Positions 754-5,218 of a stretch of 64,000 bases of DNA are shown here, in pieces (positions within the stretch are counted from its first letter, which is position 1; every line of letters begins with the position of its first letter). The stretch spans positions 7,584,001 through 7,648,000 of the forward strand of contig CM000151.3 in the NCBI GenBank assembly GCA_000004695.1. The letters run 5' to 3'. A model generated the notes under the pieces. The model was given only the letters and a program-made list of their open reading frames with translations. It was not told where the DNA came from and ran no database searches. The position numbers were made by a program, and so were the translations under genes. Source of the stretch: Dictyostelium discoideum (lineage: Eukaryota).

Positions 754-1020
754 CAATTTCCCTATAATAAAATTTTCAATAATTGAATTATTTACAACAA
801 TAGGAACAATATTAATTAAAGGGTTATATAAAAATAAAAAATTCTAAAGTAAATTTTTAAAAAAAAAAAAAATAAAAAAAAAAAATAAAAATTTTTCAAA
901 AAGTTTATTTATTTTTATTAAAAATAAAATTATATTTGAACCTAAAGTTGAAGTACAAGTTGGTTTTGAAATTTAACTAAAAAAAAAAAAAAAAAAATGT
1001 TTGTGATTATTCAATTGTTT

Positions 1021-1170
1021 TTCATTTACTTACGCAATGTTTTCCAGTGGAAGTTTAGCTATAAAATAACAATGGTTCATTAAATCTTCGTGTAAAATAA
1101 TTTTTTGTGAATAACTTCGATGTAATGGTGATTGAAAATGAAAAAAAAAAATAACATAAATAGTTTTTTT
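1021..1170 (+). promoter_or_regulatory. conserved promoter block of sHSP paralog copy 1 (GAA/TTC-rich, TATA-like cATAAATAg)
   Basis: About 150 bp upstream of the ATG at 1241 is about 85% identical to the block upstream of copy 2 (3941-4115). It contains TTCcagtgGAAg and GAAaatGAA blocks and ataaatag about 75 bp before the ATG. HSE-like but not canonical spacing. Confidence 0.35.
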
Positions 1171-1240
1171 TTTTTTTTTGATTAAAACAAAAACAAATAA
1201 ATAAATAAATAAATTAATAAATTGATAAATTAATCAGAAA

Positions 1241-1882
1241 ATGGCAACAATCTTTGATATTTTAAATACTCATAATAATAATAATAATTTTGAAAATTGT
1301 AAAAGACAATGCTCAACCAATAAAAGCAATAAAACGATAATTGATATACTACCATCAATGGATGTAACAATGACAAATGATAAACTAATCATTGAAACAG
1401 AGTTAGCAGGTATTTCAAAAGATCATATTGAAATTGACATTAAAGATTCAATACTCACTATTTAAGGTGAAAAGAAAAAGAATTTAAATAAACAACAACA
1501 ACAACAACAACAACAAAAACAATTAGTTATTGAAAAATCAACATCATCAACAACATCATTAGATAGAAAAGAAGATGAAGCATCAATTGAAGAGTTTGAA
1601 GATGATATTAAACCAAAATCAAAATCTGATAATACAACTGTATCTACAGCCACCACCACCACTAAAGAGAACAAAGAAGACGAAAATAAAACAAAATCAA
1701 CTGATAAAAAGTTTATTTCAGAAAGATCATTTGGTAATTTTAAAAGATATTTAGATTTAACAAAAATTTTATATCAATTAGATTTAAATTCAATCAATAC
1801 TCAATTTGAAAATGGTTTATTAACAATTACAATCAATAAGAAATTACATTATTCAAATACAATTAAAATTAATATAAATTAA
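1241..1882 (+). pseudogene. small heat-shock protein (alpha-crystallin/Hsp20 family, hspG-like) copy 1, with an in-frame TAA at 1463-1465
   Basis: ORF 1241-1465 (MATIFDIL...DIKDSILTI*) continues in the same frame after the TAA through ...[39 protein letters not shown] to a stop at 1880-1882. The alpha-crystallin-domain signature is intact (IxxxGExK ... FxRxxxLP ... NGxLxIxxPK-like). Copy 2 has CAA (Gln) where copy 1 has TAA. It is either a nonsense allele/pseudogene or a sequencing error. Confidence 0.55.
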
Positions 1883-2030
1883 CCAGTGACCACCTTTATT
1901 TTCCCTTCTCTATAATGTTAAATATTAAATAAAACAATAAAAAATAAAAAAAAGGAAAAAGAAATATTAAATTAAATATTTTTTTTTTTATTTAAAGTAT
2001 TTATTATTTTATTTTTGAATATATTGTGTG

Positions 2031-2048
2031 TTATTATTATTATTATTA

Positions 2049-2106
<58 letters not shown>
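2031..2106. repeat. (TTA)n microsatellite
   Basis: Uninterrupted tta repeats with one tgt variant. Confidence 0.9.
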
Positions 2107-2124
2107 CTAAATGTATTTTCACAA

Positions 2125-3242
2125 TTAAAAATTAATTTTATTTTTTGATATTACCATTACTGCTATAGAATAGGAATATTTAAAACCTAATTTTTCAATG
2201 AGAGAATTTGATTTAGTATTGTCATGTGCTGTTGAACATAGTGGTATAATATTATTTTCAATTGATGATAATGTTAATTTTGCTTTAACTTTTAATGCAA
2301 TACCTTTACATCTAAACTCTGGTAATGTAAATAAATTTGATGATTTTCCATCAGATTTAATAAAATTCCAACAAACTAAATTATTATTATTATAATAATT
2401 ATTAATATTGTTTTCATCATTTTCATCAACAACTCTATTGACTTTATTATTGTTATTATTATTAATTTTATAACCAAAAGCTAAACCATTTTCAATTGCC
2501 CAAAGTAATTCATTTATTGAAAATTCCGTTTTGTATCTATAATTGTCATCTATATAATATGCATCAGATTTTGATAAAGGAACAATATTATCATCATCTG
2601 AAATTATAGAATTTAATTTAGAAATTACTTTGGTTTTATTGTCAATATCATTAATATCAATAATATAATGATTAAAAGGAAATTTTTTAACTTCAAATCC
2701 ACATTCTTGGAAATATTCTTCAATGAATTTAACTAAAATTGGGTTTTCAATATCTCCAAAATAAAAAGTATTACTAAAAAAAAAAAAAAAAGGAAAAAAA
2801 AAAAAAATATACTTTATTAGTTTTGAAATAATATATATATATATATATTGCTAATTAAAATTAATTATTACATTTCATTTGAAAAATGATGATTTAAAAT
2901 TGCATCATTTAAATTTGTTTTTTTTAATAGTTCCTCCATTTCAATAGCATTTATACTATTTAAATATCCTTTTTCCCAATCAATTGATTTAATTACATTT
3001 TTAACGATTTTAAAATCTAGATTTTCATTATTTAATGTAAATAATTTTATAAAATTTGTAATTAATGATATTGATACTATTACACTCGGTGAATCATAAT
3101 TATCTGTAAAATATTCATATAATCCAATTTTAGTTTGGTTTTCAATAAAATCAAATTGAGGAAATCCTTTTGTTTTTTTGAAAAAACTTTTATCTTTTAT
3201 AGGTATTAATATTGATTTTTTATGATTTTCTTTTAATAACAT
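2125..3242 (-). CDS. hypothetical protein, 2 exons (3242..2872, 2773..2125), about 339 aa; C-terminus weakly GNAT-acetyltransferase-like
   Basis: ORF 2868-3242 (MLLKENHKK...HHFSNE) ends at a GTAATA donor (minus 2871-2866). After an acceptor ttttag (AG at 2775/2774), an unlisted 215-codon ORF continues in phase: I NTFYFGDIENPILVKFIEEYFQECGFEVKKF...FRCKGIALKVKAKLTLSSIENNIIPLCSTAHDNTKSNSLIEKLGFKYSYSIAVMVISKNKINF*. The R-x-K-G-I-A...N..S..L.EKLGF segment resembles GNAT motif A/B. Confidence 0.5.
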
Positions 3243-3940
3243 TTTTATTTATTTATAAATAGGAATAAAATTAAAAAAATGAATAAGTGTTTTTTTTCTT
3301 TATTATAATTTTATATGTTTTATATTTATTTTTTTTTTTTTCAATTTTTTTTTTAATTTCATTATTGTTAATTTGGTCTTCTAACTTAAATGTATAAACA
3401 TATCATTTTTTTTATATTTTTTTTTATTTTTTTTATTTATTTTTAGGGGGGTGGGGTGGTGTGGTAGGTCACATGTTTCACCAAAAATCATTTAAATTAA
3501 AAATTAAAGGTGTTTTAAATATAAAAAAAGGTTAAAAAATGCAGGATTTACTTTTTTTATATTTAGATTTATTTTAATTTTACAATCAAAATAAAATTAC
3601 GTTTTAATTTAACAGTTACCTTTTAAAAAATTAATATAAAAGACCCAAAATAACACTTAATCAATTAGTGAACAGAAAATGTTTTTAGGCAGTTGAAAGT
3701 TAATAATTTTTGTGGTGGTAATGATGGATAATCAGAATGCACCAAAATTATTTTTTATATTTTAATGTATTTCAATCCGATGAGAAAAATTTAAATAAAA
3801 ATTAAAAAAAAAAAAAAAAGTTATTTTTAGTGTTTAGTCTCTTTTTTTTTTTTTTTTTAAATTTTATTTCCAGATTTTTTACCCCTTTTTATTTTTTTTA
3901 TTTTTTTCAAAAATTTCATTTAATTTCCAATTATTTTTCA

Positions 3941-4115
3941 TTTATTCCTACAATGTTTTTCAGTGGAAGTTAAGTTATAAAATAGCAATGATTCATAAAA
4001 TGTTCGTGTAAAATAATTATTGTGAATGACTCCCATGTAATGGTGATTCACAACTTTAAGAATAAAAATATTTTCAAAATGAAAAAAAAATAATATAAAT
4101 AGTTTGAAAACCTTT
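3941..4115 (+). promoter_or_regulatory. conserved promoter block of sHSP paralog copy 2
   Basis: Paralogous to 1021-1170 (ttccagtggaagtt..., ...tgaaaaaaaaataatataaatagttt). It is followed by an (AAAT)n tract at 4143-4236. Confidence 0.35.
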
Positions 4116-4145
4116 CTTTTTTTTTTTCATTAAATCAAAAACAAA

Positions 4146-4197
<52 letters not shown>

Positions 4198-4266
4198 AGA
4201 TTAATAAATAAATAAATAAATAAATAATAAATTAATAAATTAATAAATTGATAAATTAATCAGAAA

Positions 4267-4516
4267 ATGGCAACAATCTTTGATATTTTAAATACTCTTA
4301 ATAATAATAATTTTGAAAATTGTAAAAGACAATGCTCAACCAATAAAAGCAATAAAACAATTATTGATATACTACCACCAATGGATGTAACAATTACAAA
4401 TGATAAACTAATCATTGAAACAGAGTTAGCAGGTATTTCAAAAGATCAAATTGAAATTGACATTAAAGATTCAATACTCACTATTCAAGGTGAAAGAAAA
4501 GATTTAAATAAACAAC

Positions 4517-4554
<38 letters not shown>

Positions 4555-4916
4555 TTAGTTATAGAAAAATCAACATCAACATCATCAACTTTTAGATAGA
4601 AAAGAAGATGAAGCATCAATTGAAGAAGTTTGAAGATGATATTAAACCAAAATCAAAATCTGACAACAGAACTGTATCTACTACAACCACCGCTACTAAA
4701 GAGAATAAAGAAGATGAAAATAAAACAAAATCAAGTGATAAAAAGTTTATTTCAGAAAGATCATTTGGTAATTTTAAAAGATATTTAGATTTAACAAAAG
4801 TTTTATATCAATTAGATTTATATTCAATCAATACTCAATTTGAAAATGGTTTATTAACAATTACAATCAATAAGAAATTACATTATTCAAATACAATTAA
4901 AATTAATATAAATTAA
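4267..4916 (+). pseudogene. small heat-shock protein (alpha-crystallin/Hsp20, hspG-like) copy 2, two frameshifts
   Basis: ORF 4267-4599 matches copy 1, then a 4-bp insertion (catcaACTTttagatag vs catcattagatag) and an extra A (gaagaAgtttgaa) move the frame twice. The C-terminal half (…[39 protein letters not shown]) is read in ORF 4608-4916. It is about 90% nt identical to copy 1. Confidence 0.5.
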
Positions 4917-5218
4917 CCAGTGACCACTTTTATTTTCCCTTCTTTATAATTCTGGAAATACATGTACATAATAATAAATAATAATACATTTAATAAAATA
5001 ATAAAATAAATACTTTTTGTAAAAACTTTAAAATAAATATGAAATTAATTTTTTCCTTTTTATGATTTTCTTTTTAAACTCTTTGATATGTATATATAAG
5101 TAATTATGAAAAAAATTTAAATTTATTTGATATGATTTTAAGACACGTATTAATTATAAACATCAAACTACAAATAGGGTTTTTTATTATATATATAAAA
5201 AAATTGTTGAAATTTTAT

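Follow-up and report, generated by a model that had tools for sequence, protein, structure and literature searches.

Are two adjacent small heat shock protein (sHSP) genes with interrupted reading frames decaying genes, genes that depend on unusual decoding, or victims of errors in a reference sequence? The question is raised by 64,000 nucleotides (nt) of Dictyostelium discoideum chromosome 2 (assembly GCA_000004695.1, contig CM000151.3, positions 7,584,001 to 7,648,000; hereafter the window), in which two tandem copies of an hspG gene, copy 1 and copy 2, both carry lesions in their open reading frames (ORFs). A first-pass annotation, made from the letters of the window, had put forward these three options for the two copies jointly. 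Our analysis divides them between the copies: the pseudogene option holds for copy 1, sequencing error is the better account of copy 2, and recoding is supported for neither. The combined reading, in which copy 1 (hspG10) is a young nonsense allele of the NC4 laboratory lineage and the frameshifts of copy 2 are errors of the AX4 reference, has in our estimate a probability of about 80%.

The nonsense codon of hspG10

The 74-amino-acid (aa) ORF of copy 1 is identical, residue for residue, to the AX4 protein annotated as 'Small heat shock protein hspG10' (Q550E5 / XP_642987.1 / EAL69063.1), a record whose source is D. discoideum AX4 chromosome 2. The truncation is hence already known, as the public annotation has the 74-aa protein. 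A single C>T substitution turned Gln75 (CAA) into TAA. The corresponding site is CAA in copy 2 and in every other family member examined, and the hspG10 ORF beyond the stop is undamaged (coordinates of all features are collected in Table 1).

For comparison we used an independent assembly, GCA_054883475.1 (locus tags ACTFIT), one locus of which (L001) aligns to window positions 1..11914, the alignment containing 3 mismatches and 11 gaps. AX4 and ACTFIT have six hspG proteins in identical form. The D. discoideum strains assembled from Nanopore and Illumina data in the corresponding study are only the laboratory strain AX2-214 and the wild, diverged strains CR116C and OT3A (PMC12745789), and by elimination among these we infer that ACTFIT is AX2-214. 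In this assembly hspG10 (L001 10001..10642) keeps its TAA, so that the single CAA to TAA change at codon 75, as reported by the first-pass annotation, is seen in both sequences. Two sister laboratory strains, assembled independently and by different technologies, thus agree on the TAA, which is therefore a real nonsense allele and not a read error. The AX2 and AX4 laboratory lineages were independently derived from NC4; the TAA would predate the AX2/AX3 split and would have been inherited from NC4.

The assembly of the wild strain ACTFIR gives the direction of the change. Its gene order (U4 small nuclear RNA (snRNA), promoter block, an intact hspG of 231 aa, a 355-aa gene on the minus strand, an intact hspG of 215 aa, ComC-like genes) mirrors that of the window, and the 231-aa syntenic orthologue has CAA at the codon-75 site; the TAA of hspG10 is therefore derived. 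The allele appears to be young, as judged by the undamaged remainder of the ORF, the undamaged promoter and the intact wild syntenic orthologue. Ratios of nonsynonymous to synonymous substitution (dN/dS), which mostly reflect shared history, are 0.32-0.66 for hspG10 against its relatives and 0.21-0.56 for intact pairs, and since the two ranges are indistinguishable they fit a recent event.

The consequence for the protein is visible in matches to the Pfam HSP20 profile (PF00011, gathering score 20.8 bits). Repaired copy 1 matches at 49.8 bits and the AX2 form of copy 2 at 47.2 bits, and the two fragments of copy 2 encoded in AX4 score 21.6 and 33.3 bits. The 74-aa hspG10 product has no Pfam match, its stop falling at about positions 33-39 of the 102 in the profile, and as encoded the gene is without a complete alpha-crystallin domain. 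The intact alpha-crystallin core that had been attributed to both copies is thus a property of repaired copy 1 and of the AX2 form of copy 2, and not of the encoded 74-aa product. Translation of hspG10 would yield no more than the N-terminal arm with the first third of the alpha-crystallin domain, a product unable to form the beta-sandwich, which should be non-functional as a chaperone.

Collectively these features resemble those of young non-processed pseudogenes in tandem arrays, in which likewise one disabling mutation is found in a redundant recent duplicate with the promoter and the rest of the ORF intact. Strain-variable copy number and the independent disabling of another member in a sister lineage (ACTFIY_004033, which carries an independent 7-base-pair (bp) deletion) are also shared with such arrays. 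The loss of hspG10 would then be the ordinary loss of a redundant tandem duplicate.

The frame breaks of copy 2

In AX4 the coding sequence of copy 2 runs in frame 1 to around position 4590, in frame 2 for 12 residues, and in frame 3 from around position 4627 to the stop. The AX2-214 assembly has at the same place (L001 13025..13675) 651 nt forming an uninterrupted 216-aa ORF that includes (Q)14. Relative to this allele, AX4 has four 1-bp deletions at 4494-4516, an added T at 4554, an A>T together with an added T at 4590, and an added A at 4626. The first five changes compensate one another and replace EKKKNLNK(Q)n by ERKDLNKQH(N)n. As they shift the frame, the 'poly-N' of copy 2 is a frame-shifted poly-glutamine (poly-Q); it is the last changes, at 4590 and 4626, that break the ORF. 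The lesions had been described in the first-pass annotation as a 4-bp and a 1-bp insertion, a description that gives way to the seven listed differences from the AX2-214 allele. It had also been anticipated that corrected sequence might restore both frames; in the AX2-214 assembly this is found for copy 2, with the TAA persisting in copy 1.

None of the seven AX4 changes is present in GCA_054883475.1. Furthermore, among the loci searched in four assemblies, none but the window has any of the AX4 variant strings, and the AX2 strings recur across other copies. The contexts of the lesions are copy-specific: segments of 101 nt differ from the paralogues G7-G10 at 5 or more positions and segments of 151 nt at 11 or more, and k-mers specific to copy 2 (GTTATAGAAAAATCAACATCAACATCATCAAC) and to hspG10 (ACTCATAATAATAATAATAATTTTG) could be defined. 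Copy-specific variants lying between the lesion sites are kept in AX2. Over-polishing of the AX2 copy by reads from paralogues is unlikely, given that the copy-specific TAA of hspG10, at the corresponding patch start, survived and that the contexts are copy-specific. Gene conversion was rejected as the source of the patch, the AX4 variants occurring in no other copy.

Of the 12 differences listed between the window and L001 over the first 9 kb, 7 fall within 4494..4626. Outside this patch copy 2 is the same in the two strains, which have been separate for decades, and a cluster made up mainly of single-base indels is far better accounted for by base-calling error than by mutation. A Poisson figure of 3e-13 for this clustering assumes a uniform background. 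The direction of the error follows from the intact AX2 ORF together with the sequence that the family shares at each site, and not from clustering alone. On this comparison of assemblies the frame breaks are very probably errors of the AX4 reference, introduced by base-calling or assembly in a low-quality stretch, and not mutations of AX4. They would be confined to the 133-bp patch, and copy 2 is most likely an intact 216-aa sHSP gene. Frameshift artefacts of first-generation Sanger assemblies are likewise single-base indels, tightly clustered where A or T is repeated in short runs and private to one assembly, and there too a later assembly of an almost identical strain shows the ORF to be intact; here the newer assembly also shows patchy disagreements elsewhere.

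Copy 2 is probably hspG11 (DDB_G0277125 / Q550E3), judging only by the adjacency of accessions Q550E5 and Q550E3. Neither of two homology searches returned hspG11 (Q550E3), and the second, made with intact copy 2, gave no Logan-derived protein either; D. discoideum Logan contigs exist for another gene of the window. The 110-aa and 102-aa products that the AX4 version of copy 2 would give are on record in no assembly, a weak negative given that the protein collection has neither the 216-aa product of AX2 nor the 213-aa repaired form of hspG10.

Two AX4 genes just upstream of the window, hspG8 (P0007) and hspG9 (P0017), each differ by one residue from their AX2-214 counterparts (P0084 and P0016), at sites where the other examined copies agree. 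One difference is FKNCKRQ in AX4 against FENCKRQ in AX2-214, and the other lies in ...HYPNPIKININ of AX4. These may be further errors of the AX4 reference in the array.

Competing explanations

A first alternative reading invokes recoding or unusual processing: in hspG10, read-through of the TAA or splicing of the 57-nt GT..AG stretch, and in copy 2, +1 frameshifting. In its favour, the stop is bypassed in the AX2-214 annotation, whose model has 194 aa (P0006, ACTFIT_004657, which is copy 1 minus exactly 19 codons around the stop), the downstream ORF is undamaged, and hspG11 has been seen in RNA sequencing (RNA-seq; PMC12405889). The stretch called an intron has, however, a GC content of 0.23, the same as the coding sequence, as against 0.08 in a neighbouring real intron; its 19 codons encode core beta-strands and are kept in every intact paralogue; and the same GT..AG device bridges the unrelated 7-bp deletion of ACTFIY_004033 (L004 3001..3620). 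For these three reasons we read the 57-nt intron as a gene-model artefact, a habit of the predictor. An intron over the TAA was rejected as a candidate, there being no upstream GT other than that of the exon-like stretch itself. The lesions are moreover not conserved, since the ACTFIR syntenic orthologues and the other examined paralogues are plain in-frame ORFs, and the shifts of copy 2 vanish in AX2. TAA is the usual and most efficient stop in the AT-rich D. discoideum genome, which also counts against read-through. We consider recoding highly improbable for either gene, and regard with equal scepticism the notion that hspG10 is kept alive by splicing out 1410..1466 in some transcripts, giving a 194-aa sHSP minus two core beta-strands, or through a 74-aa fragment that modulates HspG hetero-oligomers.

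The remaining alternatives treat both copies alike. Both could be real recent pseudogenes of AX4, the indels of copy 2 having arisen after the split from AX2 (e.g. in one error-prone repair event) or being ancestral and wrongly 'repaired' in AX2-214. The lesions are, after all, present in the reference sequence, AX2-214 disagrees with AX4 in other patches and is an imperfect arbiter, and decay does occur in the family, as ACTFIY_004033 illustrates. Against this, the patch packs six single-base indels and one substitution into 133 bp, when the entire overlap of 11.9 kb has 3 mismatches, the A>T of the patch among them; pseudogenes do not age in this manner, and the pattern resembles poor base-calling. 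AX2 has at each site the sequence shared by the family, along with an intact ORF, which random assembly error would not produce. The copy-specific variants are kept in AX2 with contexts that map uniquely, and the AX4-type product is not on record. This alternative is in our view unlikely. Conversely, both lesions, the TAA included, could be sequencing errors in two ordinary intact hspG genes. The AX4 reference does seem to bear errors in the array, and its hspG8 and hspG9 depart by one residue from AX2 where other copies agree. The TAA, however, is a substitution and not a homopolymer indel, it recurs in the independent Nanopore and Illumina assembly of a different laboratory lineage, and the annotators of that assembly needed an invented intron to pass it. 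An explanation by error throughout therefore has very little to recommend it.

Several points weigh against the combination of a nonsense allele in hspG10 and reference errors in copy 2. The identification of ACTFIT as AX2-214 was reached by elimination and not from the text of the record, and the identity of copy 2 as hspG11 is a probable one. The dN/dS values of 0.32-0.66 neither show nor exclude relaxed constraint on hspG10, whose lesion is too young to have left a signal. The AX2-214 assembly is itself not error-free: further disagreement with AX4 occurs within 24647..49201, in three patches of which the longest (48296..48944) affects a 240-aa ORF on the minus strand (48373..49095), where 23 residues differ, most of them being K in AX4 and N in AX2. 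Patches of single-type substitutions cannot be real divergence between sister laboratory strains, and one or other of the two assemblies must have systematic errors there. Patchy disagreement between the assemblies is thus common, and given these other patches the Poisson figure overstates the case.

Separately from these patches, the AX4 reference exceeds AX2-214 by 27-61 nt in the poly(A)/poly(T) runs at 7521, 30125, 39166 and 48231, a gap that could be Nanopore collapse or real length instability. We also observed that two 2025 Dictyostelium gene models (ACTFIT_004657 and ACTFIY_004033) hide, respectively, a TAA and a 7-bp deletion behind one and the same invented GT..AG intron, a short one in the alpha-crystallin domain, and other pseudogenes in the 2025 annotations may be masked likewise.

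Promoters, array context and significance

Table 1. Coordinates, in window positions, of the hspG features, the intervening gene and the patches of disagreement between assemblies
Feature	Position	Strand or change	Details
hspG promoter block, copy 1	1008..1135	+	palindrome TTCCAGTGGAA at 1042..1052; GAATAACTTC at 1109..1118
TATA-like ATAAATAG, copy 1	1156..1163	+	invariant or nearly so in the 13-copy upstream alignment
hspG10, full-length sHSP frame with one nonsense codon	1241..1882	+	642 nt, in frame throughout, from translation
Annotated hspG10 protein part	1241..1465	+	74 aa, Q550E5 / XP_642987.1
GT..AG stretch called an intron in the AX2-214 model	1410..1466	+	57 nt, skips the stop; ACTFIT_004657, 194 aa
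TAA, codon 75	1463..1465	+	C>T from CAA, Gln in ...ILTIQGEKK...
Two-exon GNAT/FR47-like gene between the copies	2009..3242	-	351 aa in the AX2-214 annotation (L001 gene table)
hspG promoter block, copy 2	3925..4057	+	contains TTCAGTGGAA at 3959..3968
TATA-like ATAAATAG, copy 2	4095..4102	+	from the upstream alignment
Copy 2, probably hspG11	4267..4916	+	650 nt, frame-broken in AX4; 651 nt, intact 216-aa ORF in AX2-214
Copy-2 lesion patch	4494..4626	+	133 bp, all lesions; six single-base indels and one A>T relative to AX2-214
Discrepancy patch	29760..29804	A>T x7	window against L006
Discrepancy patch	42394..42469	A>C x6	window against L006
Discrepancy patch	48296..48944	~30 changes, mostly T>A	window against L006

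The two copies align together with their flanks, which take in some 230 nt before the ATG and some 40 nt beyond the stop. The upstream part contains a promoter block of around 130 nt that is 88.6% identical between the copies and is found upstream of most of the 13 hspG copies in four assemblies, the first array copy of the wild strains (FIR_a, FIW_a) diverging in part. The first-pass annotation had seen here a conserved, GAA/TTC-rich upstream region with a TATA-like element, and had implied a contrast between conserved promoters and broken ORFs. The similarity and the shared ATAAATAG are real; a canonical heat shock element (GAAnnTTC or TTCnnGAA) was found neither in 900..1240 nor in 3800..4266. 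The contrast itself does not survive comparison with synonymous sites, at which the copies differ by a proportion (pS) of 0.082 (~92% identity). The promoter identity is no higher than this, so that recent duplication, and not selection on the two copies, explains the likeness. The most conspicuous conserved motif of the block is the palindrome TTC(A/C)GTGGAA (TTC-N4/5-GAA), which is loosely like a STAT or GAS site. Owing to an (AAAT)n tract at 4141..4260, copy 2 has a 5' leader about 100 nt longer than that of copy 1.

Published expression data concern mainly other members and the family as a whole. HSPG1 and HSPG2 are reported to be heat-induced (PMC6584373), and the HspG family reportedly is repressed early in M. 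marinum infection, an effect that is weaker in dstA and dstC knockouts (bioRxiv 10.64898/2026.06.09.729547). The supplementary tables of the dnmA RNA-seq paper have no rows for hspG10, hspG11 or hspG9.

What the window covers of the hspG5-hspG11 tandem array of AX4 chromosome 2 is its distal end. A tblastn search of the window with repaired copy 1 found only these two sHSP copies, and hspG7, hspG8 and hspG9 lie immediately upstream in L001. The annotated AX4 relatives include hspG5 (202 aa), hspG6 (210), hspG7 (207), hspG8 (211) and hspG9 (201), to which copy 1, once repaired, and copy 2 in its AX2 form are 85-91% identical. In all members the N-terminal and C-terminal parts are conserved, with a long, variable, acidic insert that is poly-Q and S/T-rich, and the poly-Q (CAA)n tract varies from about 3 to more than 20 codons among the array copies. 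In these forms both copies in the window have the split alpha-crystallin domain with this insert, and the same promoter block, which, with the PF00011 matches of the repaired copies and the exact identity of the 74-aa ORF to hspG10, bears out the membership of the Dictyostelium hspG family that had been suggested for them. They differ from hspG5-G9 in that hspG10 ends at codon 75 and copy 2 is frame-broken in the AX4 reference.

The array is built from units of about 3 kb, each comprising an hspG gene on the plus strand followed by a GNAT/FR47-like gene on the minus strand. The gene at 2009..3242 is 87% identical in nucleotide sequence to the other array units, whose GNAT/FR47-like genes, interspersed with hspG genes, are its paralogues. 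Its 351-aa AX2-214 model (minus strand) has at the 3' end an (ATT)n microsatellite (2036..2105), which would encode a poly-Asn tail. There are 7 hspG copies per array in AX4/AX2 (G5-G11), 5 in ACTFIR and 3 in ACTFIW.

On the proximal side, a U4 spliceosomal snRNA gene, a full-length match to Rfam RF00015 at 52.3 bits, is located at 559..690 on the minus strand, some 550 nt upstream of hspG10, and a U4 snRNA gene is likewise found upstream of the orthologous hspG in ACTFIR (L005 6141..6540). Directly downstream of the array are two tandem ComC-like genes on the minus strand (5136..6618 and 9541..11043) with LRR_ComC, EGF_TEN and ComC_SSD domains, which share a 1.5-kb segment of 96.9% identity. 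AX4 and ACTFIW are only around 93% identical in the ComC-like region, a sign that this locus may evolve fast. A scan of the window for transfer RNA genes found none.

Our data bear on the curation of these genes. The hspG10 entry (Q550E5) should carry a flag for probable pseudogene status, the model ACTFIT_004657 of AX2-214, in which an intron was invented, needs correcting, and the AX4 chromosome 2 sequence at window positions 4494..4626 probably needs correction, which would give a 216-aa protein. The family is heat- and infection-responsive, and for the quantification of HspG expression the gene models of hspG10 and copy 2 are unreliable. The biological weight of the nonsense allele is itself small. 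hspG is a birth-and-death family whose array gains and loses units between strains, and redundant duplicates are expected to meet such a fate as one nonsense mutation among seven tandem paralogues that are nearly identical.

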